Shown: positions 31,428 through 60,991, numbered from the stretch's first letter. The stretch is DNA of 64,000 nt from an uncultured Pseudomonadales bacterium (GCA_964544755.1 CAZJDL010000003.1:6959-70958); one strand, 5' to 3'. Notes: generated by a model from the sequence alone, not told the origin. Numbers and translations are program-made.

Positions 31428-31432
31428 AAAGC

Positions 31433-37309: not shown

Positions 37310-37335
37310 GCCATCTCATCAGTCCTACGTTAGGA

Positions 37336-39450: not shown

Positions 39451-39458
39451 GCGCAACA

Positions 39459-40991: not shown

Positions 40992-40993
40992 CA

Positions 40994-42211
40994 ATGCCTG
41001 CTTTTAGTTATCAAGCGTTGGACGGAGACGGTCGCAAAATTCGCGGTGTGCTCGAGGGTGACTCGTTACGCCAGATTCGCAGCCAACTACGCGATAAAAG
41101 CCTGAAACCCATTGCGGTAGAGGCCGCCAAAACAGTCGACGGTGCGCGCGGTGGTATGAGCTTGTTGCGTGGCAAGCGTATTCGTTTTAGCGAGCTGGTG
41201 CTATTGACGCGCCATTTGGCGACTCTGATCCAATCGCATTTACCCATCGACGAATCCTTGAAGGCGGCGGCGCAGCAAAGCCGGCGCGCGCGGGTAGAGG
41301 GCATGTTGCTGGACGTACGCTCAAGAGTGACCGAAGGTCATACGCTGGCCTATGCACTGGGCGAATTTCCGCACGTGTTTAACGATATGTACCGCGCCAT
41401 GGTCAAGGCGGGCGAACACTCGGGTTTTCTAGGCCTGGTGTTGGAGCGTCTCGCCGACTACACCGAAACGCGGCAGTTCACCCAGCAAAAAATGAAAATG
41501 GCGATGGTTTACCCGATGATTCTTATTTGCGTCGCTATCGCTGTGGTCGGTGGGCTGATGGTATATGTGGTTCCGGATCTGATTCGCATCTTTCAAAACA
41601 GCCAGGCCGAGCTGCCTCCGTTGACGGTGGGTTTGATTGCCATCAGTGATTTTCTGTCAAACTATGGGCTGCTGTGTTTGTTGCTTATTGCGCTTGCAGT
41701 CGTGGGGTTCAAGTTCGCCATGCGCAAACCCGAGCTTCAAAAAAAATGGCATACGATACTGCTGCGCCTGCCCCTCATCGGAGACCTGGTTCGCAGCGTC
41801 GAAGCCGCGCGTTTCGCCAGCACCTTGAACATTTTGATCGCCAGCAGCGTACCCTTGCTGGATGCATTGCACATTGCCGCCGAAGTAGTCAGCAACCTGA
41901 CCATGCGCGCAGCGGTGGCGAAGGCCGCCATGCACGTGCAGGAGGGTATCAGTCTGCACAAGGCGCTGGAAAACACCGCCGTTTTCCCGCCGATGATGGT
42001 GCATATGATCGCCAGCGGCGAAATGAGCGGTGAGCTTGAAGCCATGTTGCAACGTTCGGCGCTCAATCAACAGCGCGAGCTGGATATGAACGTGAACACA
42101 ATGATGAGCATTTTCGAGCCGGTGCTGGTGGTGGCGATGGGGGGGGTGGTGTTGTTGATTGTGTTGGCGATTTTGATGCCCATTTTTGGTTTGAATAATT
42201 TGATTAACTAG
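40994..42211 (+). CDS. gspF: type II secretion system inner-membrane platform protein GspF
   Basis: 405 aa. MPAFSYQALDGDGRKIRGVLEGDS N-terminus and duplicated T2SSF domains with 3 TM helices. Confidence 0.93.
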   Translation: MPAFSYQALDGDGRKIRGVLEGDSLRQIRSQLRDKSLKPIAVEAAKTVDGARGGMSLLRGKRIRFSELVLLTRHLATLIQSHLPIDESLKAAAQQSRRARVEGMLLDVRSRVTEGHTLAYALGEFPHVFNDMYRAMVKAGEHSGFLGLVLERLADYTETRQFTQQKMKMAMVYPMILICVAIAVVGGLMVYVVPDLIRIFQNSQAELPPLTVGLIAISDFLSNYGLLCLLLIALAVVGFKFAMRKPELQKKWHTILLRLPLIGDLVRSVEAARFASTLNILIASSVPLLDALHIAAEVVSNLTMRAAVAKAAMHVQEGISLHKALENTAVFPPMMVHMIASGEMSGELEAMLQRSALNQQRELDMNVNTMMSIFEPVLVVAMGGVVLLIVLAILMPIFGLNNLIN

Positions 42212-42325
42212 CGTGCAGTTTGTTCGTTACAGTGGGCTAGGTTTTGTATTATGATTTTGGTAACTTTGTGGCCACTAACGCAAGGCCGATAACGGTCAAG
42301 TGTCAATGGCGCAAGCTCACAGATC

Positions 42326-42436
42326 GGGCTGAACAGAGTGGAAATTTCCGGAACACGCCGTGAATACGTCCTTGTAGGCTCGATCCCTGGCATCCCTGCC
42401 AGGGACGGCCCCGGAAATCCCCCCTCAATTCAGCCC
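42326..42436. repeat. imperfect-palindrome REP/MITE-like element in the gspF-gspG spacer
   Basis: Terminal gggctgaa (42326-42333) / ttcagccc (42429-42436). ggaaatttccgg against ccggaaatcc. Perfect central hairpin ccctggca-tccc-tgccaggg (42385-42404). The left arm carries an extra ~30 nt. Confidence 0.55.
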
Positions 42437-42515
42437 TTATCAGCTCCGACTGGGCTTATGTAGTAGCCATTCGGGTCAAATGTATTGGTACGATGTATTG
42501 GGGAAGAAGGACAAG

Positions 42516-42956
42516 ATGAGAAAGCATCTAGCAAAAGGCTTTAGCCTGTTGGAAATTCTGGTGGTGCTGGTGATCATGGGTATTTTGGTCAGCCTGGTCG
42601 CACCCACGGTATTGAACCGGGTCGATGACGCGCGCCTGCAAAAAGCCTCCGCCGATTTTAAAGCCATTGAAACGGCCTTGAAAATTTATCACCTCGACAA
42701 TTTCAATTACCCGTCCAACGAGCAGGGTTTGCAAGCGCTGGTGACGAAGCCCTCGGACGATCCCGAGCCGCGTAACTGGAAGCAGGGCGGTTACCTGCCC
42801 GAGCTGCCGGTAGACCCTTGGGGTAATCCGTACCTGTATGTGTATCCCGGTGAGAATGGCGAATTTGATATTTATACCTTGGGTGCAGACCGCACCGCCG
42901 GGGGCGATGGTCAAAATGCCGACCTGGGCAATTGGAAAGAAGATACAGCAGGGTAG
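42516..42956 (+). CDS. gspG: type II secretion major pseudopilin GspG
   Basis: Prepilin leader MRKHLAKG|FSLLEILVVLVIMGIL. Conserved GspG core (YHLDN..YPS..QGL.AL..KP...P...W...GYL...P.DPWGN.Y.Y..PG..G.FD). Confidence 0.95.
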   Translation: MRKHLAKGFSLLEILVVLVIMGILVSLVAPTVLNRVDDARLQKASADFKAIETALKIYHLDNFNYPSNEQGLQALVTKPSDDPEPRNWKQGGYLPELPVDPWGNPYLYVYPGENGEFDIYTLGADRTAGGDGQNADLGNWKEDTAG

Positions 42957-42984
42957 GGCCGCGGCCCGCCGGCGAGCACAACAC

Positions 42985-43587
42985 ATGAGAGTGCGCGGCT
43001 TTACGCTGCTTGAAATACTGGTCATGATGGTGGTGATAGGTATTACCATCAGCTTTGTCACCCTGTCTATTGGCGTTGGCGGCCGGCCGGTCGAGTTGCA
43101 AGCCGAGGCGGAGAAATTAACCGGTATGTTGCAACTGGCGCTGGAAGAGTCCGTGCTAACCGGCAAACCGCTGGGCTTGCGCATTAACGAAACACTGGAG
43201 CGCGACGGCACACGGTTTGTCTACGAGTGGTCGGTGTTGGAGCAAGGTACATGGCAAGTGCTCGAGCAGCACCCCGTGTTACAAGACGGGCAAACGGCGG
43301 AGGGTGTTGAGCTGGATCTGACTCTCGAAGGAATTGAAATTAAATTGCTGCAAGTGCAGGACAGCAAAGACAGCAAAGACAGCAAAAAAGACAGTAAAGA
43401 CGACTCCAAGCTGAAAGAAAGCTACCAACCCGACATATTTATTTTGCAAAGCGGCGAGCTAACACCCTTCACTCTGCACATCAGCAATCCGGAGCTGCCG
43501 GGCCAGGTGTATCGCATCACTGGCAATCCAGTGGGCGCTTTGCGCCTGCTGCGCCCGGGCGACGAACAAGATGAAGAACAACAGTAA
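42985..43587 (+). CDS. gspH: type II secretion minor pseudopilin GspH
   Basis: Prepilin-type N-terminus MRVRG|FTLLEILVMMVVIGI. Position between gspG and gspI. The ATG at 42985 is preferred over the track's 42838. Confidence 0.85.
   Translation: MRVRGFTLLEILVMMVVIGITISFVTLSIGVGGRPVELQAEAEKLTGMLQLALEESVLTGKPLGLRINETLERDGTRFVYEWSVLEQGTWQVLEQHPVLQDGQTAEGVELDLTLEGIEIKLLQVQDSKDSKDSKKDSKDDSKLKESYQPDIFILQSGELTPFTLHISNPELPGQVYRITGNPVGALRLLRPGDEQDEEQQ
43360..43410 (+). repeat. in-frame 9-bp tandem repeat (gacagcaaa x3 plus degenerate units) inside gspH
   Basis: gacagcaaa at 43360, 43369 and 43378, followed by aaagacagtaaagacgactccaag. Encodes DSKDSKDSKKDSKDDSK. Confidence 0.85.
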
Positions 43588-43975
43588 GGGCTTCACATTG
43601 GTCGAAGTGTTAGTCGCGCTGGCGGTGCTCGCCATTGCGCTGCCGGCCTTGCTGTTTAATATCGCCGAGCAACTCAGCAGCCTCGACTATATGCGCGAAA
43701 AGTCGATGGCGCATTGGGTGGCGATGAACAAAATGACCGAGCTGCGCTTGCAGAACGAACATCTCGATTATCTGCCGCGGGACAAACTAAACGGTTCTTC
43801 CATGCTGGCCGAGCGTGAGTGGTTCTGGACAGTCGAAACCAAAAAAACGGTGAGTGATATTGTGCTGCGTGTCGATATCAAGGTGCGCAAAACCGACGAC
43901 GACAAAGATCAGGCGCTCGCAACGGTCAGCAATTATTTTCAACTGCCGGTCGATACGACGCTTGCCCGACCATGA
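43571..43975 (+). CDS. gspI: type II secretion minor pseudopilin GspI
   Basis: Leader MKNNSKG|FTLVEVLVALAVLAI. 134 aa, the expected position and size. Confidence 0.88.
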   Translation: MKNNSKGFTLVEVLVALAVLAIALPALLFNIAEQLSSLDYMREKSMAHWVAMNKMTELRLQNEHLDYLPRDKLNGSSMLAEREWFWTVETKKTVSDIVLRVDIKVRKTDDDKDQALATVSNYFQLPVDTTLARP

Positions 43976-44625
43976 ATGAGCGCGAGCGCGGCTTTACCCT
44001 GATCGAAGTGCTGGTGGCCAGTGCTTTGACGGCATTGATCGGCGTGATCGCCTATAGCTTTTTAAGTACCGCACTGGATGCGCAGGCCAGCCAGCAGGCG
44101 CAGGCCGACCGGCTGAATGAAATCAATTTGTTTTTCACCGCGCTGGCGCGTGATGTACGCCAGGCCGTTGATCGTGAAATACGTGATGAGCTGGGCGAAA
44201 CCGAAGCGGCCGTGCTCGGTGGAACGGGCACCGAATACCTGCTCAGCCTGACCCGTGGTGGCTGGTACAATCCGCGCGCCGTGGCGCGTAGCAGTTTGCA
44301 GCGCGTGGCCTATGGCTTGAACGATGAACAGCAGGTCGAGCGGGTCGCCTGGCATATGCTCGACCGGGCGTCGGAGCAGAATGTTTATAAAGCCGTTGTA
44401 TTAAGCGCTGTGGAAGAAATCTATTTTCGCTTTCTGGCGCGCGAAGAAGTGCGTGTCGACCCCGATGATGTCGGCAAAACCTGGCGCGAAAGATGGCCAG
44501 TTGAAGACGTGTCGCTTGGCGGTCAAACCGACCAGCCGCTGCCGGTGGCGATCGAGATCACCCTCACGCTGCAAGACCTTGGCGAAATCCGGCGCATCTT
44601 TGCGCTGGCGGTAGAGAAGCCGTAA
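43972..44625 (+). CDS. gspJ: type II secretion minor pseudopilin GspJ
   Basis: Leader MNERERG|FTLIEVLVASAL. 217 aa. ATGA overlap with gspI. Confidence 0.88.
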   Translation: MNERERGFTLIEVLVASALTALIGVIAYSFLSTALDAQASQQAQADRLNEINLFFTALARDVRQAVDREIRDELGETEAAVLGGTGTEYLLSLTRGGWYNPRAVARSSLQRVAYGLNDEQQVERVAWHMLDRASEQNVYKAVVLSAVEEIYFRFLAREEVRVDPDDVGKTWRERWPVEDVSLGGQTDQPLPVAIEITLTLQDLGEIRRIFALAVEKP

Positions 44626-45686
44626 TGCGCGCAGCCAACCGCAGTCGTGGCGCCGCCTTGCTGGTGGCCATGCTGGTCGCAGCGCTGGTTGCCGTAATCG
44701 CTACCAAGGTCGGCAGCCATTACCTCCTCAGCTTTCGGCGCAGCTCGAATATGCTGCTGGGCGATCAGGGTTATTTGTACCTGCTCAGCGCCGAGGCGTT
44801 GGCGAAAAACGTGTTAATTGCCGATGAAGACAGGGAAGCCGATCACCTCGGTGAAGCGTGGGCGCAGCAAGTGGAGCCGTATGTGATCGATGGTGGTTTG
44901 TTAACCGGTCAGATTTATGATTTGCAGGCGCGGTTTAATTTAAACAACTTGAAGGATGAGCGTCCGTCCGTTCAGGGGTCACGAAGCCCCGCTGCCGAGC
45001 AAATGATTTTTATGCGCTTGCTGCGAACCTTTGACGAGATCGAAGTCACCGAACAGCAGGCGCAGGAGATTACCAACGCGGCTATCGACTGGCTGGATGC
45101 AGACGCAGAGCCAACGGGCTTTAGCGGCGCCGAGGATGACTACTATACCGACCTTGATATTCCCTACCGCGCCGCCAACCGGCAGATGCTTAGCGCCAGT
45201 GAATTACGCCTGGTGCAAGGCATGACGCCAGAATTGTATCAGGCGTTGGCGCCGCATATCGTGGCGTTGCCGACTCGTACGCTGATCAATACCAACACGG
45301 CGACCGTCAATGTACTGCGTAGCGTGGAGCCCGCGGAATCCGGCAGCCAATATGAACCACAAAGTCTGGAGGCCATTCAGCCATTGCTCGAGCGACGCGA
45401 GGAACAAATGCAGCTGAACACCGACGGCATTGATCCGGGTGTTGGTGGAGCCGATAACCAGCAAAATTCCCGCTCTGGGACCGAAGGTGGAGGGGGCGGT
45501 AGCAATAAAAAAAACAGGCCTAAGATCAGTACAAACAGCAACTACTTCCTGTTCGACGGCCTGGTCAAACTCGGTGATTTAACCCTGCCTATCAAGTCCA
45601 TACTCCATCGCGAAGGCGGTGATGGCCAAGCGGGCGCTACTAAAATCCAGGTTAGCGTGATCCGGCGCAGCCTGGGCAGTCTATAA
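44625..45686 (+). CDS. gspK: type II secretion minor pseudopilin GspK
   Basis: RGAALLVAMLVAALVAVI N-terminus without the Glu5 residue. GspK-type helix-hairpin-helix region (ELRLVQGMTPELYQALAPHIVALP). TAATG overlap with gspJ. Confidence 0.88.
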   Translation: MRAANRSRGAALLVAMLVAALVAVIATKVGSHYLLSFRRSSNMLLGDQGYLYLLSAEALAKNVLIADEDREADHLGEAWAQQVEPYVIDGGLLTGQIYDLQARFNLNNLKDERPSVQGSRSPAAEQMIFMRLLRTFDEIEVTEQQAQEITNAAIDWLDADAEPTGFSGAEDDYYTDLDIPYRAANRQMLSASELRLVQGMTPELYQALAPHIVALPTRTLINTNTATVNVLRSVEPAESGSQYEPQSLEAIQPLLERREEQMQLNTDGIDPGVGGADNQQNSRSGTEGGGGGSNKKNRPKISTNSNYFLFDGLVKLGDLTLPIKSILHREGGDGQAGATKIQVSVIRRSLGSL

Positions 45687-45711
45687 TGATATCCACAGCG
45701 GGGATGCGACA

Positions 45712-46935
45712 TTGAAAAAAAGATTGCTACTGCAATACAACACCGCTACCAATCTGTGGCGCTGGCTGTATTTTACCGACAGCGGGCAGCCCGGCTTGCC
45801 GGCCCGCGATGGCCGGCTTGACGATCTGGCCACCGAATTACAGCAAGCCGGCGCCGACGTGGTATTGCTGGTGCCGTCGGCCGACGTAGTGTTGCGCCGT
45901 ATCGCGTTCAGCGCAGGGGAACGCCGCCATGTGCTCAAGACCGCGCGCTTCGACCTTGAAGAACAGTTGATCAGCGATGTCGACGAATTGCATTTCGCCT
46001 ATGCCAAACCCGGCGCCAGCGAGCTTGACGTTGCCATAGTGGCCGCACACAAACTGCAAAGCTGGCTGGCCCCGCTGCAGGAGCGGCAATTAAATGTCGT
46101 TGCCGTACTGTCGGCCCAAATGGCCTTGCCGCACAATAACGACGGCTGGGTAGCGACCGAGGAAGACAATCGGCTGAGCGTAAAAACCGCTGCCTTGCGG
46201 GGCTTTAGCGTGCAACACGACGTCGCCCAACTCGCCTGGGATTTGTGTACCCGCGAGCACGAACAACTGCCAGAAAAGATCAGGATATTTGCCGGGCGGC
46301 GCGCGCTTGAAGAACAAATTCTACCCGCCATGCCGCCGGTACTGGCACAGCGGGTCGAGGCGCAACAAAACTCATGGTGGGCTGAGGTCAGCTGGGCCAG
46401 CCTGGTAAAAACGCCGTTAAATCTGTTGCAGGGAGAATTTAGCCCCAGCGTCGCCTGGGGTAAAATGTGGCGTTTTTGGCGCGCCGCCGTGCTATTGCTA
46501 GGGGGTGCTGCGCTATTGCAAATAGCGGTCGCATGCGCACAAAACGTCAAGCTGGAGAATGAAAACCTGCGCCTGCGGCAGGAGATAAGCGCGGTTTACC
46601 AGCAGGCTTTTCCCAATAGCCCGGTGACTGATCCGGAAAAACAAATGCGCAGCCAGCTCAAACGTTTACAGTCGGGCGCGCAGAGCACAAATTTTTTACC
46701 GCTGTTCTATAAAACCAGCAAAACACTGGCGCAGTTTGATGATTTGCAACTGTTGAGTATAAACTATGACAGTCGGGCGGATGAGTTGCGCGCCGACTTG
46801 CTGGCGAAAAAGTTTCAGGACCTTGACCGGGTGCGCGCGGCACTGGGCAAGCAGGCCATCGACGCACAATTGGTGAACAGCAACAGGGTCGATGACGGCG
46901 TGCGCGCACGGATGAAGTTTCGGAGCAAGTCATGA
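45712..46935 (+). CDS. gspL: type II secretion system protein GspL
   Basis: 407 aa. Cytoplasmic actin-like N-domain, a single TM helix (FWRAAVLLLGGAALLQIAV) and a periplasmic C-domain. Position between gspK and gspM. TTG start is uncertain. Confidence 0.82.
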   Translation: MKKRLLLQYNTATNLWRWLYFTDSGQPGLPARDGRLDDLATELQQAGADVVLLVPSADVVLRRIAFSAGERRHVLKTARFDLEEQLISDVDELHFAYAKPGASELDVAIVAAHKLQSWLAPLQERQLNVVAVLSAQMALPHNNDGWVATEEDNRLSVKTAALRGFSVQHDVAQLAWDLCTREHEQLPEKIRIFAGRRALEEQILPAMPPVLAQRVEAQQNSWWAEVSWASLVKTPLNLLQGEFSPSVAWGKMWRFWRAAVLLLGGAALLQIAVACAQNVKLENENLRLRQEISAVYQQAFPNSPVTDPEKQMRSQLKRLQSGAQSTNFLPLFYKTSKTLAQFDDLQLLSINYDSRADELRADLLAKKFQDLDRVRAALGKQAIDAQLVNSNRVDDGVRARMKFRSKS

Positions 46936-47411
46936 ATTATTTTGACCGGTTCTTGCAGCTCAAACAACGCGAGCAGTGGGTGCTGGTGATTGGCTCGGCG
47001 GTCGTGCTGCTTTATATTTTCTTTATTCTGCTGTGGCGGCCGCTGCAGAACGGCAACGAACAACTACTGTTGCGCAATGCAGAAGCCGCAAAGGCGCTCG
47101 AGTGGATGCATGCCAGCGCTGCGACCCTGCAGGCGGACGCGCAACAACAGCGCAAGGGCAATCCGGCGAGCAACGCAAATTTACCGCAGTTGCTGGATAG
47201 AAGCGTTTCAAAATTCGGCATGCAATTCAGCCGTTTTCAACCGAAGGGCGGTAACAAGGCGCAAGTATGGTTCGACGCCATCGAGTTCGCAGCGCTGGTC
47301 GCCTGGCTCGACGAGCTGGGTAAGAAAAAAGTCTACGCCACCAGCGTGAGCCTCAATAGCACGCAGCAAACTGGCCACGTTAACGCCAGCGTCGCTTTGC
47401 AACAGTTTTAG
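46932..47411 (+). CDS. gspM: type II secretion system protein GspM
   Basis: 159 aa, with an N-terminal TM helix (WVLVIGSAVVLLYIFFILLW). ATGA overlap with gspL. Confidence 0.85.
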   Translation: MNYFDRFLQLKQREQWVLVIGSAVVLLYIFFILLWRPLQNGNEQLLLRNAEAAKALEWMHASAATLQADAQQQRKGNPASNANLPQLLDRSVSKFGMQFSRFQPKGGNKAQVWFDAIEFAALVAWLDELGKKKVYATSVSLNSTQQTGHVNASVALQQF

Positions 47412-47415
47412 CGCG

Positions 47416-48207
47416 GTGCGGGCATTAAGTTTACCGTCGAGCTTGCAGGCTTACCGCCGCTTCAGCCTGCCGATTATTCTGCTGTTAGTGCTGCTGTTGA
47501 TCTTCAGCATGCCGGCGCGGGTATTCCTGTCTTTTATTGATATCACTCAGTTCGGCTTATATGCGCAAGGAGTGAGTGGTCCGTGGTACGCCGCCAGGGC
47601 CGGGCGAGTGCGGCTGCAGACGCCCACTGTGGCGGTCGAGCTGACGCATGTGAAATGGCGCGTGAAGCCGCTGGCGTTGCTGCGTGGGCGTTTTATGCTG
47701 GCGCTTGACGCCGAGTTTGCCCAGCGCCCGGTGAAGGCGGTAGTGGGCGCCGGGCTTGATGGACGCGTATTCGTGCAGCATCTGACCGCCGCCGTGCCAA
47801 TGCGGGAGTTAGCGCCGCTGATGACACAGCTGATAGTTCCCCTCGACGGCCAAATCAACCTGCAAGATGTTTCCCTGCAGCTGCGGCGGCGCTGGCCGGA
47901 AGAGCTGCGCGGCAAGGTGTTGTTGACCGATGTGGCGTTGACACTACCTACCCAGTTGCTCAAGGTGGGTGATGTGTTAATCGGCCTTGGAAAGCAGAAC
48001 GAAGACATTCTATTGGCCATTATCGAAAACAGCGGTCCGCTGCATCTGGGTGGCCAGCTCACACTGGCGGCTGAGCGCGGCTTCGAGCTGCGGCTAAACA
48101 GCACGCCTGGAGAGCAACTGAGTCCTGAATTGCGTATGCAAATGCAGGCGATGCTTGGCAATCCGGTCAACGGCCAATTCAATTTTCGCTACCGAGGTGC
48201 CTGGTAA
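47416..48207 (+). CDS. gspN: type II secretion system protein GspN
   Basis: 263 aa with an N-terminal TM helix. Last gene of the gsp operon. GTG start 4 nt after the gspM stop. Assigned mainly by position and size. Confidence 0.7.
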   Translation: MRALSLPSSLQAYRRFSLPIILLLVLLLIFSMPARVFLSFIDITQFGLYAQGVSGPWYAARAGRVRLQTPTVAVELTHVKWRVKPLALLRGRFMLALDAEFAQRPVKAVVGAGLDGRVFVQHLTAAVPMRELAPLMTQLIVPLDGQINLQDVSLQLRRRWPEELRGKVLLTDVALTLPTQLLKVGDVLIGLGKQNEDILLAIIENSGPLHLGGQLTLAAERGFELRLNSTPGEQLSPELRMQMQAMLGNPVNGQFNFRYRGAW

Positions 48208-48345: not shown

Positions 48346-51294
48346 ATGTGTTTCCATGAACTGAATAAACGTCTACCTAGTGTTGCTGCTACTTTGCTGC
48401 TGACAGCCGTGCTGGCGGGTTGCGGCAGTAGTAATAGCGGCGATTCGCTGGCAATCGACGAAGGCGACAAATCCAGTGGTGATTTCAAAATCGCCTATGT
48501 GAAGCGCTCGGTCGATTCGGTTGGCAATCCGACCGACGCCGGCCGCTTTCGCGCCGGCGGTGATTTGTTTATCCGAGACTTGTCGGCGGGTGCCGCCGAC
48601 GAGACCAATATTACCGGCGCATTAACCAACGGCACTGGCGACGTGTCTGACCTGGAAGTTTCTTACGACGGCACCCGGTTGGTGTTTTCAATGTGTTTTG
48701 ACGACCACACCTGGGACATCTGGGAGTATAACGTCGACACTGGCGAGCTGCGCCCGATTATTGCCGACGACGCGATTGCCGATCAAGGCGACGATCACGA
48801 CCCGGTCTATCTGCCCGATGGCCGCATTGTATTTTCTTCCAATCGGCAGACCCGCAGCGCCTTCCTGCAGTTTCAGCAAGGTATTCCGCGGCCCTATAAA
48901 TACCGCGATGAATACCAGCGCGAAGCCACCTCTGCATTACACGTGATGAACCCCGACGGCAGCAACATACGCCAGCTTTCATTCAACCAGAGCCACGACC
49001 GCAACCCCACCGTGTTGCGCAGTGGTGAAATAATGTACGCGCGCTGGGACCACTTCGGCAATCGCAATCATATGCCGGTCTATACAATGAACCCGGATGG
49101 CACCAATGTGTCGCTGTTATACGGCGCATTCAGCGGCGTAAATAGCTTGCCGCACCCGCGCGAAATGGCCAACGGCAACATCCTCAGCACGGCCATGCCA
49201 CTGGCTTCCACCTACGAGGGTGGCGCGCTAATGGAGATTGACGTCAAAAATTTCCTTGAGATCGACCAGCGGGCGCCGGTCGACAGCACTGCACCCGGCT
49301 TTGACCCCAACCTGTTGCCGGCGGAAGACGCCGAAGGGCAACGGCAGGTCACTTTTAATCCAATCAATACCAATAAAGGCATTTCCGGGGGAGGGCGTTA
49401 TAGCGCACCGCACCCGCTGTGGGACGGTAGCAACCGCGCGCTGGTGGCCTGGTCGCCGACCCAGCCCGAAGAAGTGATGAACGTGATCACCGGCGAACTG
49501 GAAATGCAAGAAGGGTTGCCCGTGTATGGCCTTTATATGCTCGATCTGAATGACCAGTCTCAGCAACCGATCGTATTGGCGGAAATTGGCTCGGGTCAGT
49601 CTGTGGTTGAGGGCGTGGCCATCCAGCCGCGCTCGCCGGCCGATGTGCCCGCGGTCATCGCCGACCCGGACCTGAGCGGCGATCTGTCTGATCGGGGCAT
49701 GGCCGTTTTAAACATAAAAAGCGTATACGATACCGATGGGCTGGGCAGCATGGGCGAGAGCATGCTGGTCGGCAATGAAGCCATACCGCAGCGACTGGCA
49801 CCGGCAGGCGACAGCCGCGAGACGATCGCTGATCTTGGCCAACTTAAAGATCCGACCTCGGTGTTTCGCAATGACCCGGCGCTTAAAAGGCCGGCGCGTT
49901 TCGTGCGTGTGACCAAAGCGGTAGCGACCCCGCCGGCCATGAACAAAGATACGATCAGCGCCAACGACATGGAAATGCAGCAAATCGTGGGTTACGGCGA
50001 GGTTGAGCCGGACGGATCGGTGAAAATAGAAGTACCGGCAGAAACCGCGGTCGCTATCAGCGTGCTCGACGACCAGGGTCGGGCCATTCAGGTGCATACC
50101 AATTGGCTGCATTTGCAGCGCGGTGAAGAGTTGACCTGTAACGGTTGCCATTCGCCGCGCCGTGGCACGCCGATCAACGGCCCCGGTTTTACCGGCGATC
50201 ACCCAAATACGACTGCCGCTGGTTTGGCTGAAGAAGGCGAGACCATGGCGGAAACGCGCGGCCGCCTTAACCCCGCTGCCTTGCAGCCCATGCAAGACAT
50301 ACTATTCCGCGATTTTTGGTCGGACGCAACCACGCCCACCGCGCCGGAGCCCGACATTACCTTTGACTATTCGCTGCTCACTACGGCGGCTCCCGCCGAT
50401 GGTCTGATCAACTACCCCGAGCATATTCAACCGCTGTGGAACAAAGCCTGCGTGTCCTGCCATAGTGCTGGCGCGCCGGCCGCGGGGCTCGATCTTGGCG
50501 CCGCCATCGACCAATCCGTCGGCGGCAACGGCCGCATGACTTCCTATAACGAACTGACGGTGGGTGAGCCGCTCACGGGGGCGGGCGGTTTACCCGCCGT
50601 TGTTCAAGTCGATGGCAATATTGACATCGAGCGTGACCCGGCAATCGTTGAACAGGGCGGTTCTGCCGATGGCAGTCGGGCCAGCCGCCTGATCGAACTG
50701 CTCTATGGTGAAGAGCTGCGCGCCGCGCTGGGCCTCAACGGCGACAGCATTCATCCGGGTTTGCTGAATGCTTCCGAGCGGCGCCTGGTGACTGAATGGG
50801 TGGACCTCGGTGCGCAATATGTCAACACGCCGTTTGAGCGCGGGCCGAACAACCCGGACGGCTCGCTTGGCGATCTGTTGTTAGGCACATTTCGCGCTAC
50901 GGCGCCGACCTTGGACGGCGCCGAATTTACCGATCGCGTATACCCCATACTGATAGATCGTTGCGCAGATTGTCACCAGCCACGCGGCGATGCCAGCGTA
51001 CAAGCACCCGCGGCGGCTAACCTCGGCCCCGGCGGTTTTATTCTTACCGGCGACGCCAGGGGCGATCTCAATATTACCCTGGCGATGATTGCCGACGGCG
51101 CCGACCCTGCCGCTACTGCGTTGCTGGCCAGGGCCGCCTCCAATGGGGCGACGGGTAACCCGGTGCATCCGTTGATATTTGACCCGGTGGCGGGCCAGGT
51201 ACCCGTGCTGTCGGCTGATGGGGCGAATGATCCGAACAGCAGTAATGCCGACTATCAGGCCATATTTGACTGGATCAGCAACGTCGGGCAATAG
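48346..51294 (+). CDS. large lipoprotein with TolB-like (PD40) beta-propeller repeats and three CXXCH motifs (two in Planctomycete-cytochrome-C-like context)
   Basis: Lipobox LLLTAVLAG|CGSS. PD40-like repeats (YDGTRLVFS, YLPDGRIVFSSNR, MNPDGSNIRQLSF, MNPDGTNVSLLY). CNGCH at nt 50137-50151, CVSCH at 50449-50463 (IQPLWNKACVSCHS) and CADCH at 50962-50976 (VYPILIDRCADCHQ). Confidence 0.8.
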   Translation: MCFHELNKRLPSVAATLLLTAVLAGCGSSNSGDSLAIDEGDKSSGDFKIAYVKRSVDSVGNPTDAGRFRAGGDLFIRDLSAGAADETNITGALTNGTGDVSDLEVSYDGTRLVFSMCFDDHTWDIWEYNVDTGELRPIIADDAIADQGDDHDPVYLPDGRIVFSSNRQTRSAFLQFQQGIPRPYKYRDEYQREATSALHVMNPDGSNIRQLSFNQSHDRNPTVLRSGEIMYARWDHFGNRNHMPVYTMNPDGTNVSLLYGAFSGVNSLPHPREMANGNILSTAMPLASTYEGGALMEIDVKNFLEIDQRAPVDSTAPGFDPNLLPAEDAEGQRQVTFNPINTNKGISGGGRYSAPHPLWDGSNRALVAWSPTQPEEVMNVITGELEMQEGLPVYGLYMLDLNDQSQQPIVLAEIGSGQSVVEGVAIQPRSPADVPAVIADPDLSGDLSDRGMAVLNIKSVYDTDGLGSMGESMLVGNEAIPQRLAPAGDSRETIADLGQLKDPTSVFRNDPALKRPARFVRVTKAVATPPAMNKDTISANDMEMQQIVGYGEVEPDGSVKIEVPAETAVAISVLDDQGRAIQVHTNWLHLQRGEELTCNGCHSPRRGTPINGPGFTGDHPNTTAAGLAEEGETMAETRGRLNPAALQPMQDILFRDFWSDATTPTAPEPDITFDYSLLTTAAPADGLINYPEHIQPLWNKACVSCHSAGAPAAGLDLGAAIDQSVGGNGRMTSYNELTVGEPLTGAGGLPAVVQVDGNIDIERDPAIVEQGGSADGSRASRLIELLYGEELRAALGLNGDSIHPGLLNASERRLVTEWVDLGAQYVNTPFERGPNNPDGSLGDLLLGTFRATAPTLDGAEFTDRVYPILIDRCADCHQPRGDASVQAPAAANLGPGGFILTGDARGDLNITLAMIADGADPAATALLARAASNGATGNPVHPLIFDPVAGQVPVLSADGANDPNSSNADYQAIFDWISNVGQ

Positions 51295-51612
51295 CGAACG
51301 ACACTCAACCCGGTATGTGTCGCGCAGCGTTTTTGGCGTGGCGAAAGCGGCAATATTACCAACGTACGGCACCATTTATGTGCGCTTTTTTTGCGCGCCA
51401 ATTATTTGTGATGCTGTACCATAGCCGTTTTATGTGGCGCGGGTTTTTGCCGCGCCATGAGCGTCACGCTACTACTAATATAATGTGTTTACAGGAAAGC
51501 CAGCCATCGATCTTCAAACCAGCGACACGCGACTACCCGATTCTGGCATGCAGCAGCGGTGCTTTTTCGCCGTGCCAGCCGCTAACGATTTGTTCAATTT
51601 CATTGCCGACTT

Positions 51613-51655
51613 AGTGTCCCGTGGCGAATAAACTGTTTATTCGCCACGGGACACT
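51613..51655. repeat. perfect 20-bp-stem palindrome (43 nt) in the spacer before the beta-barrel/TPR locus
   Basis: agtgtcccgtggcgaataaa-ctg-tttattcgccacgggacact. All 20 pairs checked base by base as Watson-Crick. No adjacent T-tract. Confidence 0.85.
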
Positions 51656-51708
51656 GGCCTTAATTTGTTCGCGCCCCGATTGCACTGCCTGTTAGGCATT
51701 CACCGCAC

Positions 51709-52446
51709 ATGAATTATCGTCTCTGGAACGCGTCTATTTTTTTGCTTGCCTTTTTGCTGCCGCAATTCGTGCAGGCTCAGCCGCTACTGCTCGTCGTGCA
51801 GGAAGTTTACATCGACTTGCATACGGGCCCCGGCCGCGGCTTTCCCCGCCAATTCGCCGTCGAACGTGGCGCCACTATCCGCGTGATCAAACAACGCACC
51901 GATTGGGTCAAGATCCAGACTGAGCGCGGCAGTAGCGGCTGGGTAAAAAGTAGCGCTTTGGAAAAAACGCTGACCACGGCGGGCCTGCCGGTACGACTCA
52001 GCCGCACGCGCTTTAGCGATTATCGGCAGCAGCGCTTCGAACTGGGCGTCGGCGGGGGTTACTACGCGGCTGAACCCGAGGTTTTCGCGCGCGCCGGTTA
52101 CCGTTGGTCGAAAATTTTCAGCACCGAATTGGGTGTCGCGCAGGTGACAGGCGATTTCTCCAATTCGAAATTGATTATGGTTAATGTTCTGACCCAGCCC
52201 TTCCAGTGGGAGCGCTGGTCGCCGTTTTTAAGCCTCGGCATTGGGCGCAACTATAACAATCCCAATCGCAGCCTGATTAACGCTGAAAAAACAGACAGTG
52301 ATTTTTTTAATTTTGGTTTGGGAACGCGTTTCTATTTAACGCGATCTTTAGTGGTCAGGGCGGAATATAAACGCTATAACTTAGTAGAAGGCGATGAAAA
52401 TGATGGTCAGAATGAATACAACATCGGCTTATCCTTCTTCTTTTAA
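51709..52446 (+). CDS. outer-membrane beta-barrel protein with N-terminal SH3-like domain
   Basis: Signal peptide MNYRLWNASIFLLAFLLPQFVQA. SH3b-like segment (IDLHTGPGRGFPRQFAVERGATIRVIKQRTDWVKIQTERGSSGWVKSSAL). Beta-strand-pattern C-terminal half ending YNIGLSFFF (OMP C-terminal Phe). Confidence 0.8.
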   Translation: MNYRLWNASIFLLAFLLPQFVQAQPLLLVVQEVYIDLHTGPGRGFPRQFAVERGATIRVIKQRTDWVKIQTERGSSGWVKSSALEKTLTTAGLPVRLSRTRFSDYRQQRFELGVGGGYYAAEPEVFARAGYRWSKIFSTELGVAQVTGDFSNSKLIMVNVLTQPFQWERWSPFLSLGIGRNYNNPNRSLINAEKTDSDFFNFGLGTRFYLTRSLVVRAEYKRYNLVEGDENDGQNEYNIGLSFFF

Positions 52447-52449
52447 AGG

Positions 52450-53094
52450 GTGGGGCAAGTTGTGAAGACGTTCACGTTTTTGTGTATGGTAGCGCTGGTC
52501 TATTCGCTGAATAGCGCTGCGCAAGAGCTGCCGGAAGCGAATGAGAGTGAAGTTATTCCGTCTGACATGGAGCGCGAAGAATATACGGTGCCGAAAATCG
52601 ACACCGAGAATTTTGAGGTCGGCCTGCATTATGGCGGTCTCAATATAGATGATTTCAACACATCGGGGTCTTACGGTGTGTTTTTGGATTATCACGTGAC
52701 GGAAGATGCTTTTATTGAGCTTAACTATGGTCAAGCCGAGGTGCTGGATACGCCGTTCCGGCGCATTGGAGCGCCTATCTTTCCGCAGCAGAAGGAAGAC
52801 ATCAAGTATTACAACTTGTCGGTGGGTATCAACGTGTTGCCAGGGGAGATATTTATTCTCGACAAATACGTGCTCGGTTCCACTTTTTATGTGATCAGTG
52901 GCCTGGGCAATACCGAGTTTGTCGGCGACGACAAGTTTACGTTTAACCTCGGTTTTGGTATTCGCTTGCTGCTAACGGATTCGATCAGCTTGCGGGCCGA
53001 AGCGCGGGACTTGATGTTCGACAATGACATTTTGGGCAAAGAAGAACTAAAACATAATTTTGAATTCAGGGCCGGAGTGAGTTTCTTTTTTTAG
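52450..53094 (+). CDS. outer-membrane beta-barrel domain protein
   Basis: Signal peptide (FTFLCMVALVYSLNSAAQ). Alternating strand pattern, C-terminus FEFRAGVSFFF. GTG start; an alternative GTG lies at 52462. Confidence 0.78.
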   Translation: MGQVVKTFTFLCMVALVYSLNSAAQELPEANESEVIPSDMEREEYTVPKIDTENFEVGLHYGGLNIDDFNTSGSYGVFLDYHVTEDAFIELNYGQAEVLDTPFRRIGAPIFPQQKEDIKYYNLSVGINVLPGEIFILDKYVLGSTFYVISGLGNTEFVGDDKFTFNLGFGIRLLLTDSISLRAEARDLMFDNDILGKEELKHNFEFRAGVSFFF

Positions 53095-53111: not shown

Positions 53112-53624
53112 ATGCAAACATTCACAAAGTTGCGCTCCGGTGCGTGCAAGGTTTTGTTGGTCGCGGCGCTTAGTCTGCCGCATATTAGTTCGGCGACGCA
53201 GCAGTTGCAGCCGGCGCCTAATTTCACGTTACCCAGTATCGACGGCGCTAATTTACGGCTTAGCGAATATCGTGGCGACGTCGTGATGGTCAATTTCTGG
53301 GCAACCTGGTGTGGTCCGTGCCGGCAGGAAATGCCGCTGCTGGACAAAATGTATAAGCGCTACAAGAAAGCTGGTTTCACCCTGTTGGGCGTCAATGTAG
53401 AGAAGGACCGCGCCAAAGCACAACGCGTTGCCAAGCAGCTCAATGTCAGCTTCCCGATATTGTTCGACTCGGCACAGCAGGTTGTTGACTCCTACAAGGT
53501 AGGATCCATGCCGAGTACGGTACTGGTCGACCGTGACGGTAATATCCGTTACGTACACCTGGGTTACAAAGCCGGCGACGAAAAACTGTACAGCAAAATG
53601 GTCAAAGAGTTATTGATAGAATGA
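53112..53624 (+). CDS. TlpA/ResA-like periplasmic thiol:disulfide oxidoreductase
   Basis: Signal peptide. Thioredoxin-fold active site VNFWATWCGPCRQEMP. Downstream GVN......A and PSTVLVDRDGNI motifs. Confidence 0.88.
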   Translation: MQTFTKLRSGACKVLLVAALSLPHISSATQQLQPAPNFTLPSIDGANLRLSEYRGDVVMVNFWATWCGPCRQEMPLLDKMYKRYKKAGFTLLGVNVEKDRAKAQRVAKQLNVSFPILFDSAQQVVDSYKVGSMPSTVLVDRDGNIRYVHLGYKAGDEKLYSKMVKELLIE

Positions 53625-53733: not shown

Positions 53734-54243
53734 ATGTCGAAGTTTTTGATGACCACATTGCTGCTGCTGAGTTATTGCGTTAGCGCGCAAGACGAGACCG
53801 CCAGCGTGGCCGATCAGGTTCAAGACCTGAAGCAAACGGTGATCAAGCTGAATCGGGATTTATTCATTCTGGAAGAAGAGCTGTTGTTTCCCGCTAATAC
53901 TCAGGTTGCGTTTTTTGTGTCGATGGACGTTGGCGAATTTTTTCAGCTCGATACCTTGCAGCTAAAAATCGACAATAAAACCGTCGCCAATTACTTGTAC
54001 ACCGACCGCCAGATCGACGCCCTGTTTCGTGGCGGGGTGCAGCGTTTGTTTGTCGGCAACGTGCGCAACGGTGACCATGAGATCAGCGCATTTTTTACCG
54101 GCCGTGGGCCCAAGGGTCGCGACTACAAGCGCGCGACCAGCTATCGCTTCACCAAAGACAGCGACGCGAAATACCTTGAACTTAAAATCAAGGATTCCGA
54201 GCGCATGCATCAGCCTGAATTTACGGTAAAAGAGTGGCAATAG
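53734..54243 (+). CDS. secreted hypothetical protein (169 aa)
   Basis: Signal peptide MSKFLMTTLLLLSYCVSAQ. Its stop lies 1 nt before the next gene's start. No family recognised. Confidence 0.7.
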   Translation: MSKFLMTTLLLLSYCVSAQDETASVADQVQDLKQTVIKLNRDLFILEEELLFPANTQVAFFVSMDVGEFFQLDTLQLKIDNKTVANYLYTDRQIDALFRGGVQRLFVGNVRNGDHEISAFFTGRGPKGRDYKRATSYRFTKDSDAKYLELKIKDSERMHQPEFTVKEWQ

Positions 54244-54244: not shown

Positions 54245-56185
54245 GTGCTTTTTTCGCGTAACGCTATCGGCATAAACGCGCGCCCCGTTGGCCGCGGTTT
54301 ATGTTTGTTGTTGAGCGTTTGCCTGCTGGCGCTAGCGCTGCGGGCAGGCGCCGAGCAGCCCGCCGCAACGGCAAAGGCGCGCACTACGGCGCAAGACCTG
54401 GGCTACGGTGTCATGCTGTACGAATACTTCCAGCACAATTATTTGCCGGCCTTGATCGAGCTGGAAGTGGCGCGTAAGCGCGGCGGAATTCAAGGTCATG
54501 GCAGCCATCCCGATTTGATGGAAGGTGGAATCAAATTGTCATACGGCATGGACCGCAGTGCCGAAAAGATCTTTAATCGCTTGCTGGCGGACTATCCAGA
54601 CCCGGCCGTGCGCGACCAGGCCTGGTTCTATCTGGGTAAGATCGCCTACCAGCGCGCCGAGTTCGAGCGTGCCGCCAATACTTTTGACAAAATCGGTGAC
54701 CAGTTACCCGCTAATTTGCGCGACGAGTTTTTATTTCTCACCGCCAATCTGCTCATTAAGGCCGGCCAGTTAGACCGCGCCCGGCAGCGCATCGACAAGC
54801 TCGACGCCGAATCGCCGTGGCAGCCGTATGCGCGCTTTAATTTGGGGGTCGCCTATGCGGCGGAAAATCCCGATCAAGCCGGCAATGCGTCACAACAAGC
54901 CATCGCGGCGTTTGCCAAGCTGGCCGACTATGCCAAAGACAGCGATGAGCTGAAGGCGTTAAATGACCGTGCTAGCCTTGCCGCCGGTTATGTGCTGCTG
55001 CGCGCGGGCCAGCAGCCCGATGCTATCGAGGCATTCAAGCGCGTGCGCCTGCAAGGCCCTTATGCGTCGCAAGCCATGTTGGGTTACGGTTGGGCGGCGG
55101 CTGAGCTAAAAGATTATAAGCTGGCTTTAACGCCGTGGCAGCGTTTGTCCGAGCAGTCCCTGATAAGCCCCAGCGTGCAGGAATCCTTTCTCGCTGTTCC
55201 GTTTGCCTACGAACAACTGGGTGCGGAACGACAGGCGCTGGAAGAATTTGAGCGCACGGCCGCAGCCTACGAGGTCGAACTGCAACGCATCGACCAGGCG
55301 CTGGCCACCTTGCAAGACGCAGATATCATGCAACTATTTGTGCGTGAAATGGGCGCCGGAGCCAGCAACTGGATTATCACGGGCAATGACCTCGATGTTA
55401 AGCCGCAAACCCCGTATCTGGCGCATCTGATCGCACAACACGAGTTTCAGTCGGGCCTGATGGATCTGCGGGACGCGTACGCGCTGCAAGCCAACTTGCA
55501 ACACTGGGAAGATAAAGTCGCCACTTTTTCCTATGCCATTGAGAGTTATCAAATCGCGCGCGATAAAAAGCGGGATGGCGCGGACCAACGCGCCTTGAAT
55601 CAACTGCCAGAGCTTGAGCAACGGCACGATCAGTTAGCGACGCGTATTGCGGCGATCGAGAAAGGTGGCGCCGTGCTAGCCCTGCTGCCAAACGCGGAAC
55701 AGGCCAGGGTGCGCAAGCTGGCGGCCGTGCAAACCACGCTTAACGCTGCGCAGAGCAGCGGCGCTGACGCCGCTGAAGAACAACATCGACTGGATATGCT
55801 GCGTGGTGTTTTACTGTGGGAAGCGGCGGAACAGTACCCGGAAAATTTACGCGCAGCCAAGAAAGCACTGACCGACAGCGCGCTAATTCTAGACAAGGCG
55901 TCGGCGACAAAAACGCAAGTGCAGGGTCTGTTGGCAACATCCGACACGCGGCCTGCGCAGGAACGCGTGCGTGTCGGGCAACAGCAGTTGCAGGCCGCAC
56001 GTGCGCAAAGCGATCAAACCATCGCCGCCGCGCGCCGCTACCTGGCTGAGTTGGCCAGTGCTGAACTTGGTGAGCAACGGCGCAATATCACTACTTATTT
56101 GTCGCAGGCGCGGTTGGCGATTGCTCGTTTGTACGACACCGGAACCCGGCGCGCGCTTGAACCTGGCGGTGGAGGCGAGCCGTGA
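54245..56185 (+). CDS. secreted TPR/coiled-coil protein (646 aa)
   Basis: Signal peptide (LCLLLSVCLLALALRAGA). N-terminal half has TPR-like A/L/Y-rich repeats (AWFYLGKIAYQRAEFERA, ARFNLGVAY, AMLGYGWAA). C-terminal half is Q/A/L-rich coiled coil. GTG start. Confidence 0.78.
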   Translation: MLFSRNAIGINARPVGRGLCLLLSVCLLALALRAGAEQPAATAKARTTAQDLGYGVMLYEYFQHNYLPALIELEVARKRGGIQGHGSHPDLMEGGIKLSYGMDRSAEKIFNRLLADYPDPAVRDQAWFYLGKIAYQRAEFERAANTFDKIGDQLPANLRDEFLFLTANLLIKAGQLDRARQRIDKLDAESPWQPYARFNLGVAYAAENPDQAGNASQQAIAAFAKLADYAKDSDELKALNDRASLAAGYVLLRAGQQPDAIEAFKRVRLQGPYASQAMLGYGWAAAELKDYKLALTPWQRLSEQSLISPSVQESFLAVPFAYEQLGAERQALEEFERTAAAYEVELQRIDQALATLQDADIMQLFVREMGAGASNWIITGNDLDVKPQTPYLAHLIAQHEFQSGLMDLRDAYALQANLQHWEDKVATFSYAIESYQIARDKKRDGADQRALNQLPELEQRHDQLATRIAAIEKGGAVLALLPNAEQARVRKLAAVQTTLNAAQSSGADAAEEQHRLDMLRGVLLWEAAEQYPENLRAAKKALTDSALILDKASATKTQVQGLLATSDTRPAQERVRVGQQQLQAARAQSDQTIAAARRYLAELASAELGEQRRNITTYLSQARLAIARLYDTGTRRALEPGGGGEP

Positions 56186-59719: not shown

Positions 59720-60021
59720 AAGCAAAATATCTGAATGTTTTATTGCCGGCTGTTTTGTTGTTGGGGTTGCAAGCTGTCCATGGTGAAGACGAACTGAATC
59801 TGCAAGGCACTTTTAAAGGCAACCGTGAGCAACCGCGTGTGCTGTATATCGTGCCCTGGCAGCAGCCGGGCGGCCCCGAGGGACTCGATCGTCCGGTCAA
59901 CGGATTGATAGACAATGTACTGACACCGATAGACCGCGATGTGTTTCAGCGCGAATTGAAGTACTTCGAGGTGTTGTCGAAGGGCGAACAGGAGTCGGCG
60001 GGCGGCATTCTGTCCAAGTAA
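59716..60021 (+). CDS. small secreted protein (101 aa)
   Basis: Signal peptide MKAKYLNVLLPAVLLLGLQAVHG. ATGA overlap with the upstream TPR gene. No family recognised. Confidence 0.7.
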   Translation: MKAKYLNVLLPAVLLLGLQAVHGEDELNLQGTFKGNREQPRVLYIVPWQQPGGPEGLDRPVNGLIDNVLTPIDRDVFQRELKYFEVLSKGEQESAGGILSK

Positions 60022-60985: not shown

Positions 60986-60991
60986 CTCCCG

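Follow-up and report, generated by a model that had tools for sequence, protein, structure and literature searches.

A lipoprotein with three haem motifs and the hydrazine synthase alpha fold is probably linked to an Agl/Glt-like envelope cluster, and not to the adjacent type II secretion operon, in an uncultured Pseudomonadales bacterium

In a 64,000-nucleotide stretch of DNA from an uncultured Pseudomonadales bacterium (GCA_964544755.1 CAZJDL010000003.1:6959-70958; hereafter the window), a gene directly downstream of a type II secretion system (T2SS) operon encodes a lipoprotein that, in our judgement, is probably a lipid-anchored c-type cytochrome with the fold of HzsA, the alpha subunit of hydrazine synthase, linked to a Glt-like machine and not to the T2SS, and working by the relay and motor mechanism proposed below. 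The gene is the first of a conserved operon that continues with two outer membrane (OM) beta-barrels, a TlpA/ResA-type reductase, and the Agl/Glt core, and its link to the barrels, the TlpA-type reductase, and a TolQR/TonB motor spans two protein families and two proteobacterial classes. The lipoprotein is most probably sorted to the OM, outside the cytoplasm, and most likely serves as the OM-anchored redox subunit of an envelope machine driven by the proton motive force (PMF). The family is known in databases by name only, with no published function in the literature searched.

The initial annotation described a 982-aa lipoprotein with the lipobox LAG-C, and both the open reading frame (ORF) and its signal withstood comparison with relatives. 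From the sequence, the N terminus (MCFHELNKRLPSVAATLLLTAVLAG-C) is a signal peptide II with the lipobox L-A-G-C at residues 23-26 and a lipidated Cys26, which was kept in 98% of 120 homologues. The tether following Cys26 lies in a stretch (residues 24-42) with a predicted local distance difference test (pLDDT) score below 50 in an AlphaFold2 model. The E. coli +2 rule holds that the residue after the lipidated Cys governs lipoprotein sorting; at this position Gly or Ser occurred in 86 of 103 homologues and Asp in only three, which predicts sorting to the OM. The three CXXCH motifs that had been read at residues 598, 702, and 873 lie at exactly those positions and have not been lost in homologues, their nine Cys/Cys/His positions being 99 to 100% conserved (120 homologues, 44-99% identity). 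The remaining cysteines are C2, C26, and an unconserved C117, a position occupied by Arg in 85% of homologues, and six of the seven Cys in the mature protein fall inside CXXCH motifs. By composition, 0.0015 such motifs would be expected, and any motif at all appeared in just 282 of 200,000 shuffled versions of the protein. No other ORF with multiple CXXCH motifs occurred within the window, where the leftover CXXCH occurrences sit in implausible frames.

Consistent with the HzsA-like architecture suggested earlier, Pfam assigned residues 530-602 to HZS_alpha (PF18582; E 9.8e-18; 64.9 bits versus a gathering threshold [GA] of 26.6). The AlphaFold2 model, built on a 74-sequence alignment (pLDDT 82.5; predicted template modelling score 0.85), gave 5C2V_A as its best Foldseek match (E 5.7e-33; 913 aligned columns; TM 0.63 on the target), with TolB propellers next (E 1e-11). 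5C2V_A was also the sole sequence match in the PDB, at E 3.6e-9 with the single sequence and 4.3e-21 with the family profile. Pfam, Foldseek, conservation, and PDB alignments together support the earlier description of a haem-bearing lipoprotein of HzsA-like architecture with no characterised function. The PD40/TolB-like propeller also stood, through its TolB matches and one PD40 match above the Pfam threshold (residues 146-168), several further PD40-like stretches (D-P-x-x-x-P-D-G-x-(I/L)-x-F) being discernible by eye. One detail was not confirmed: the planctomycete-type (PSCyt) context attributed to the motifs at 702 and 873 was not recovered, as the PSCyt1/2 Pfam models gave no match at E≤10; the best Pfam cytochrome matches, Cytochrome_CBB3 at 694-714 and Cytochrom_C at 872-894, were below threshold.

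HzsA (kuste2861; 5C2V/5C2W chain A) and the lipoprotein have in common an N-terminal PD40-type propeller, an HZS_alpha middle domain ending in CXXCH, and a C-terminal cytochrome c domain, although their identity is only ~15%. H803 of the lipoprotein aligned with HzsA His772 (chain His745), the distal ligand of the bis-His haem alphaII (PMC12758564), and was conserved in 100% of 120 homologues and in 95% of a di-haem sister family. The haem alphaI site is different. In HzsA, Tyr591 is the iron ligand and a zinc site is formed from His587 and Cys303 (PMC12758564). Profile alignment paired CSGCHYGSYRG of HzsA with CNGCH-SPRRG, so that Tyr591 corresponds to Arg605, and no equivalent of the zinc ligand Cys303 exists because the sole non-haem Cys of the mature protein, C117, is unconserved. 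Whereas HzsA is a soluble anammoxosome protein with beta and gamma partner genes (a propeller plus CCP-like di-haem protein), the present protein is a lipoprotein with an extra third haem domain, and no such partner genes were found within the window. The NCBIfam model hydrazine_alpha (NF052339) scored 65.1 bits against an equivalog cutoff of 800, and the hosts of relatives, judged by organism names, are sulfur oxidisers and heterotrophs, not anammox bacteria. Thus, the fold, the HZS_alpha domain, and the bis-His alphaII arrangement of HzsA are present, and the Tyr591/zinc site, the beta/gamma genes, and an equivalog-level score are absent.

A genuine hydrazine synthase was therefore rejected as an identification, on the replacement of Tyr591 by Arg605, the missing zinc-ligand Cys, the missing beta/gamma genes, and 65 versus 800 bits. 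The wider proposal, that the protein is a true HzsA or else a dedicated nitrogen-cycle enzyme acting on hydroxylamine or NO, draws on the HZS_alpha domain, the overall HzsA fold, and the conserved alphaI and alphaII motifs and His772 equivalent. Set against these are the same score and Tyr591 substitution, the lack of a Cys303 equivalent, the absence of an HzsB- or HzsC-like gene from the window, and hosts that are not anammox bacteria, and we regard it as most improbable. Hydroxylamine or NO chemistry at a canonical His-ligated haem may nevertheless occur.

Relatives of the protein are numerous. At least 1876 word-index matches were recorded, a scan of 1.84 billion cluster representatives returned 7190 relatives at E≤1e-3, of which 1051 reached E≤1e-30, and 437 genomes of the GTDB set (one genome per species) encode relatives. 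Carriers were mostly Gammaproteobacteria, including Litoribrevibacter, Litoribacillus, Thioalkalivibrio, Panacagrimonas, Nevskia, Sulfuricaulis, and Halothiobacillaceae, along with some Burkholderiales (Ideonella, Rhizobacter). Databases name these proteins 'HzsA-related protein', 'Hydrazine synthase alpha subunit middle domain', or 'HZS_alpha domain', and the protein of the window belongs with the HZS_alpha-domain lipoprotein cytochromes, as full-length homology, the lipobox, the haem-1 and haem-2 motifs, and H803 are all conserved. The literature searched held no function for HzsA-like proteins outside anammox, nor for Glt-like clusters in Gammaproteobacteria, and a 2025 study of HzsA homologues includes none with a tested function (PMC12758564).

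Adjoining this tri-haem family is the di-haem sister family of lipoproteins, which lacks the third domain. H199, Q210, D218, R233, H584, W587, C-x-G-C-H, M634-A635, the second CXXCH, and H803 are common to both families at 92 to 100%, and residues so shared would be expected, from sequence comparison, to form a common functional core. H199, Q210, D218, and R233, at least 95% conserved in the sister family, fall in an invariant polar cluster of the propeller (D188, E189, R192, H199, Q210, N214, S216, H217, D218, R219, N220, R233, W234, H236, H270, and E273). We infer that haem 1 and this invariant propeller patch constitute the working site, with the patch as a candidate substrate or metal site and H584 or M634 possibly supplying the sixth haem-1 ligand; haems 2 and 3 would be low-spin bis-His relay haems. 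Domain 3 is homologous to a small CX4CH lipoprotein encoded downstream in relatives (hhalign probability 96.5%). A derivation of domain 3 by duplication of domain 2 was tried and dropped: hhalign aligned just 21 columns around CXXCH (probability 66%), and such an origin is thus not shown.

Given the size of the family, we examined the genes that accompany it. All window neighbours were searched by tblastn against the best 80 related loci (38-82% identity; numbered with the prefix L) of relatives in the 437 genomes, and colinearity was counted only at loci with a long enough downstream flank. The genes that follow the cytochrome gene in the window recur beside it at nearly every such locus (Table 1), and the GltC-like and GltD-like genes were colinear on the same strand in 59/61 and 56/57 loci, respectively. 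The second OM barrel is inferred to be GltA/B-like from its position. The TlpA-like reductase scored 131 bits with the NCBIfam ResA model, under its 170-bit cutoff, and the 169-aa protein that follows it had no Pfam or NCBIfam match. Among the three tetratricopeptide repeat (TPR) proteins, the one of 955 aa matched the YbgF-type TPR model (92 bits, NCBIfam), and the one of 227 aa is a lipoprotein (LAAC) with a weak GltE match (39 bits, NCBIfam). No family match was obtained for the small 101-aa protein. The 317-aa protein carried an AgmX/PglI C-terminal domain (73 bits versus a cutoff of 40) together with partial GltG (52 bits) and GltJ matches.

Table 1. Features of the cytochrome gene and its surroundings in the window. 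TM, transmembrane.
Feature	Coordinates	Strand	Evidence
gspC-N type II secretion operon	36305..48207	+	Pfam: gspC, D, E, F, G, J, K, L, M, N
Tri-haem HzsA-related lipoprotein gene	48346..51294	+	982 aa, ATG start; ORF, Pfam HZS_alpha, AlphaFold2, Foldseek
Signal peptide II, lipobox LAG-C (Cys26), and disordered tether of ~20 residues	48346..48423	+	Sequence, conservation, pLDDT
PD40/TolB-like beta-propeller, ~residues 45-430	48478..49635	+	All-beta secondary structure, TolB matches, invariant columns
HZS_alpha middle domain ending in haem-1 motif	49693..50235	+	Pfam/NCBIfam; HMMER alignment to 5c2v_A residues 497-569
CXXCH 1 (C598-N-G-C601-H602), within invariant C-x-G-C-H-S-P-R-R	50137..50151	+	Sequence, conservation
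Cytochrome c domain 2, ~residues 676-835	50371..50850	+	Aligned with HzsA haem alphaII domain (chain 641-771)
CXXCH 2 (C702/C705/H706)	50449-50463	+	Aligned with HzsA alphaII motif
H803, predicted distal ligand	50752-50754	+	Aligned with HzsA chain His745 = His772
Extra C-terminal cytochrome c domain 3, ~residues 852-982	50899..51291	+	Invariant motif; not in HzsA or di-haem sister family
CXXCH 3 (C873/C876/H877)	50962-50976	+	Sequence, conservation
H941, candidate distal ligand	51166-51168	+	99% conserved (120 homologues)
Perfect 20-bp inverted repeat, hairpin	51611..51657	+	TTAGTGTCCCGTGGCGAATAAAC TGT TTATTCGCCACGGGACACTGG; once in window
OM beta-barrel with N-terminal periplasmic SH3 domain	51709..52446	+	Pfam SH3_3, OMP_b-brl; C-terminal ...SFFF; 73/73 loci
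Second small OM beta-barrel, OMP_myx_plus type	52450..53094	+	NCBIfam TIGR04565, 135 bits vs cutoff 60; 67/67 loci
TlpA/ResA-like periplasmic thiol-disulfide reductase (WCGPC)	53112..53624	+	Pfam AhpC-TSA/Redoxin; 64/67 loci
Secreted 169-aa protein	53734..54243	+	61/62 loci
Three TPR proteins, 646/955/227 aa, GltC-/GltD-/GltE-like	54245..59719	+	Pfam TPR; sizes and order
Small secreted 101-aa protein, core-complex 'additional gene'	59716..60021	+	ORF; flank clustering family; between GltE-like and AglR-like genes
ExbB/TolQ-like (225 aa) and two ExbD/TolR-like (202, 175 aa) proteins, AglR/Q/S-like PMF motor	60308..62124	+	Pfam MotA_ExbB, ExbD
GltG-like TonB/TolA-type 317-aa protein: TM helix, Pro/Lys-rich spacer, TonB_C-like end	62127..63080	+	NCBIfam, sequence

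The hairpin listed in Table 1 lies within the 415-bp gap between the cytochrome gene and the gene for the SH3-domain barrel, where relatives have the small CX4CH lipoprotein gene and where the window otherwise holds one implausible 99-aa ORF. Its possible roles are transcription termination, attenuation, and RNA stabilisation. Upstream of the clusters, Fur box scoring equalled background (10.8 versus 10.7 of 19 matches), and no sigma-54 promoter pattern was found.

The composition of the downstream block recalls the 'core complex' defined by Luciano et al. 2011, which consists of gltC, gltD, gltE, gltG, aglR, aglQ, aglS, and one extra gene without myxobacterial homologues, and which is clustered in several Gammaproteobacteria, one betaproteobacterium, Geobacter, and Fibrobacter, with its function unknown there. 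Table S3 of that study assigns Mpe_A1224-1226 (634/941/243 aa) and TERTU_3747-3745 (640/964/225 aa) to MXAN_2541 (GltC), MXAN_4870 (GltD), and MXAN_4869 (GltE), and skips one locus tag before the AglR homologue. Sizes and order in the window (646/955/227/[101]/225/202/175/317 aa) match the Methylibium, Teredinibacter, and Thioalkalivibrio entries of that table, Mpe_A1224-1228 and TERTU_3747-3745 among them, and the 101-aa gene stands where the locus tag is skipped; the downstream block is therefore identified as the Agl/Glt core complex. As distinct from Tol/Exb paralogues, the Glt/Agl identity of individual proteins is to be read as putative, based on model matches only (GltG, 52 bits; GltE, 39 bits; AgmX domain, 73 bits). 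Gene order, sizes, and domain content agree with the published complex, yet neither 'cytochrome' nor 'thioredoxin' occurs anywhere in the full text of that paper, which does not name the two OM barrels, TlpA, or ApbE/DUF3570 as partners. Moreover, it restricts gltA/B-type barrels to Deltaproteobacteria, whereas here barrels lie beside the core.

The cluster also bears comparison with Tol-Pal (TolQ-TolR-TolA-TolB-Pal-CpoB/YbgF), since both comprise a TolQ/R-type motor, a TolA/TonB-like spanning protein, a PD40 propeller, OM-anchored partners, and a YbgF-type TPR protein. The likeness to TolB itself is confined to the propeller fold (TIGR02800, 27 bits versus a cutoff of 343). In Tol-Pal, the OM partner is Pal; here the partners are beta-barrels, and the propeller protein is lipid-anchored and carries three haem motifs. 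One could thus envisage a non-redox, TolB-like structural component whose CXXCH motifs bind zinc or form disulfides, in keeping with its propeller, with the TolQ/R-, TolA/TonB-, and YbgF-like TPR genes nearby, and with the finding that the His of the first CXXCH in HzsA binds zinc (PMC12758564). However, the full C-x-x-C-H is invariant at three sites, two of which align with solved haem motifs, the distal His is conserved, and a dedicated ResA/TlpA-type reductase gene adjoins, so we give this explanation scarcely any credence compared with a c-type cytochrome.

De novo clustering of the flanking ORFs of the 80 loci revealed further partners in relatives. ApbE (Pfam, 296 bits) lay directly upstream of the cytochrome gene in 53/63 loci with >3 kb of upstream sequence, a CX4CH lipoprotein of ~170 aa lay directly 3' of it in 76 loci, and DUF3570 (64 loci) and DUF4266 were found between the TlpA and 169-aa genes. 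The small lipoprotein (L003 12877-13386 and equivalents) has C-x4-CH, e.g. TCAASGCH, and a Cys-rich C terminus. By tblastn, ApbE, DUF3570, and the small lipoprotein had no counterpart in the window, except for a weak match to the C-terminal domain of the cytochrome, and DUF4266 has no room there because the gap between the TlpA and 169-aa genes is 110 bp. Compared with L003-L080, the window (gaps 48207-48346, 51294-51709, and 53624-53734) and its two closest relatives thus share the absence of ApbE, the CX4CH lipoprotein, DUF4266, and DUF3570, and the gsp operon takes the upstream place.

Passages of Méheust et al. 2021 (PMC8238504) report that ApbE flavinylates DUF3570, and group these two with DUF4266 and a thioredoxin-like protein in a system for extracytosolic electron transfer, of unknown function, which DsbD feeds in some bacteria. 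The same gene set surrounds the cytochrome gene in most relatives, and the window keeps its thioredoxin-like member. Those passages name no hydrazine-synthase-like or TPR proteins, and where TonB appears in them the subject is a different one. A preprint on C-terminal sorting signals places DUF4266/DUF3570/TlpA neighbourhoods beside JDVT-CTERM proteins in a few species.

Loci of the di-haem sister family (L084, L086, L087, and L089) came from Halioglobus maricola, Pseudohalioglobus sediminis, and two metagenome contigs. With the exception of Pseudohalioglobus, they carry the HZS_alpha lipoprotein gene followed by those for the SH3-domain barrel, the second barrel, TlpA, DUF4266, and DUF3570. 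The core complex adjoins this cytochrome block, divergently oriented, in 4/4 sister loci with enough flank. Three genes precede the sister core complex, encoding proteins of ~400-423 aa (PSD2/DUF1585), ~820-880 aa (Laminin_G_3, weak haem motifs), and ~520-545 aa (no match). At another core-complex locus (L085), no HzsA-like gene occurred within 10 kb. There, positions 110-4546 encode a protein of 1478 aa that combines a seven-bladed propeller and Ig/PKD domains with a di-haem end resembling CCP_MauG (24.4 bits versus GA 25.6), an architecture resembling the hydrazine synthase beta-gamma fusion, and ApbE adjoins it.

These arrangements bear on whether the cytochrome partners only the TlpA/DUF4266/DUF3570/ApbE electron-transfer proteins, with the Agl/Glt core as a separate neighbour. 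HZS_alpha, the two barrels, TlpA, DUF4266, and DUF3570 always form a one-strand block, the Halieaceae core complex is transcribed divergently from it, the core of L085 has no HzsA-like gene, and, according to passages of PMC8238504, the ApbE-DUF3570-thioredoxin-DUF4266 unit also exists without the Glt core. Nevertheless, adjacency of the two blocks extends over two families and over both Gamma- and Betaproteobacteria, with a colinear arrangement in 56/57 loci and a divergent one in the 4/4 sister loci. The window has lost the flavin module, yet the cytochrome, barrels, TlpA, and core stay together. Furthermore, the second barrel belongs to a family expanded in myxobacteria, and the placing of barrels between the cytochrome and gltC-like genes recalls the Glt OM platform. 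A partnership restricted to the flavin module therefore appears unlikely, and we favour a cytochrome linked to the Agl/Glt core as well.

The operon upstream had suggested a different association. As the initial annotation stated, the lipoprotein gene closely follows gspN in the same orientation: 138 nt separate it from the end of gspN at 48207, a gap with no predicted terminator, and Pfam identifies the genes upstream as gspC-N. In the tblastn survey, gsp matches were confined to 2/80 loci, L001 (82%) and L002 (79%), both from Pseudomonadales metagenome-assembled genomes and the nearest relatives of the window; the other 78 had no gsp genes within up to 10 kb of flank. A 99%-identical metagenome contig (L082) has the same gsp-adjacent arrangement as the window, and most non-gsp loci carry ApbE or unrelated genes upstream. 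Since gsp is present only in the two closest of the 80 loci, its adjacency is best read as a lineage-specific rearrangement. Within the operon, the mechanical gspE ORF (546 aa from a GTG at 39351) shares 100 nt (39351-39450) with the end of gspD; its true start probably lies further downstream, because gspE is called at 510 aa on the 99%-identical contig.

Surface multihaem lipoproteins of Shewanella, MtrC and OmcA, need the T2SS for their localisation, and the initial annotation had proposed T2SS-dependent surface localisation here too. MtrC and OmcA are likewise lipoproteins with several c-type haem motifs, and gsp adjoins the gene in this window, but they hold ten haems versus three here, and their fold and sequence are unlike those of the present protein, whose structural matches were HzsA and propellers only. 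That the adjacent T2SS exports the protein to the cell surface in the manner of MtrC/OmcA would accord with its c-type haem motifs and lipid anchor, with its position 138 nt past gspN on the same strand with no predicted terminator, and with the retention of this arrangement in the two closest relatives and the 99%-identical contig. It is very unlikely in view of the comparative evidence: orthologues are unlinked to gsp in 78/80 loci, which the annotation had named beforehand as telling against its proposal, similarity to MtrC/MtrF is not significant (Pfam PF22113, E 0.2, 11.6 bits versus GA 30), and a different, universally conserved set of envelope partners accompanies the gene. Adjacency to a T2SS operon is thus misleading here as a guide to annotation. 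Surface exposure is possible, and, if it occurs, the Glt-like machine is a better candidate mediator than the T2SS.

For the HzsA-fold cytochrome and its Glt-linked partners, we propose the following mechanism. Haems 3 and 2 would relay electrons to or from haem 1, which would pack on the invariant His/Asp/Arg-rich propeller patch serving as a substrate- or metal-binding site. ResA and CcmG keep CXXCH cysteines reduced for haem attachment, and the TlpA-like protein might keep those of the apocytochrome reduced or, alternatively, feed electrons. In most relatives, electrons would enter through the ApbE/DUF4266/flavinylated DUF3570 module, lost in this lineage. The AglRQS-like motor and GltG-like arm could act via the two barrels on the lipoprotein, setting its position, exposing it, or gating it. 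The analogy here is with Myxococcus, in which the display of the OM lipoprotein CglB at the cell surface is controlled by the GltA/B/H barrels together with GltK (the Glt OM platform) through a TonB-like process powered by protons (CglB study). As a tentative and decidedly speculative generalisation, the Agl/Glt core of Gamma- and Betaproteobacteria may be a PMF machine with a redox protein as its cargo or effector: an HzsA-fold haem lipoprotein, and in most lineages a flavinylated DUF3570 barrel too, would be put in place, exposed, or gated at the OM by the TonB-like arm and the GltA/B-like barrels, with the propeller His patch by haem 1 perhaps a haem/non-haem metal site.

Several points weigh against the proposed role. 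Synteny indicates partnership, not mechanism. Co-transcription with gsp is possible in this organism, as no terminator is predicted after gspN, and the proposed electron route is incomplete here because ApbE, DUF3570, and DUF4266 are missing in the lineage. Nor is the cytochrome obligatory for the motor, given the core complex of L085 without an HzsA-like gene. No ccm, dsbD, or further cytochrome genes were found within the window. H584 and M634 are candidate haem-1 ligands, and the spacing between the haems and the placing of the propeller His cluster next to haem 1 are likewise putative. Finally, the literature found reports no tested function for non-anammox HzsA homologues.

Non-anammox HzsA relatives, the Glt/Agl core of non-gliding proteobacteria, and ApbE/DUF3570 flavinylation are here linked in hundreds of genomes. 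If the speculative generalisation to the Gamma- and Betaproteobacterial core is true, the cluster would represent an electron-transfer system of a new type, one that spans the envelope and is under mechanical control. HzsA-fold lipoproteins with the His772 ligand form a large, deeply conserved family in non-anammox proteobacteria; their existence bears on the origin of hydrazine synthase, placed by a recent study in a few anaerobes (PMC12758564). The ancestral core complex, described in 2011, gains a candidate cargo of interest to gliding-motility research, and cultured, sequenced carriers exist, among them Halioglobus maricola CP036422, Panacagrimonas perspica DSM 26377, Thioalkalivibrio sp. 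XN8, Litoribrevibacter euphylliae, and Ideonella lacteola.

Elsewhere in the window, an exopolysaccharide biosynthesis and export cluster occupies 18297-32713 and encodes a GT2 glycosyltransferase, a Polysacc_synt flippase, a Wzz/GNVR protein of the tyrosine-kinase type, a Poly_export/SLBB protein, a BBP2_2 porin, Bac_transf, GT1, and Wzy_C proteins. A 679-aa ORF at 21965-24004 had no Pfam match. Past the aspartokinase gene, tRNA-Ser(GCT) and tRNA-Arg(ACG) lie within 17650-17997 and were the sole Rfam/ARAGORN matches in the window.

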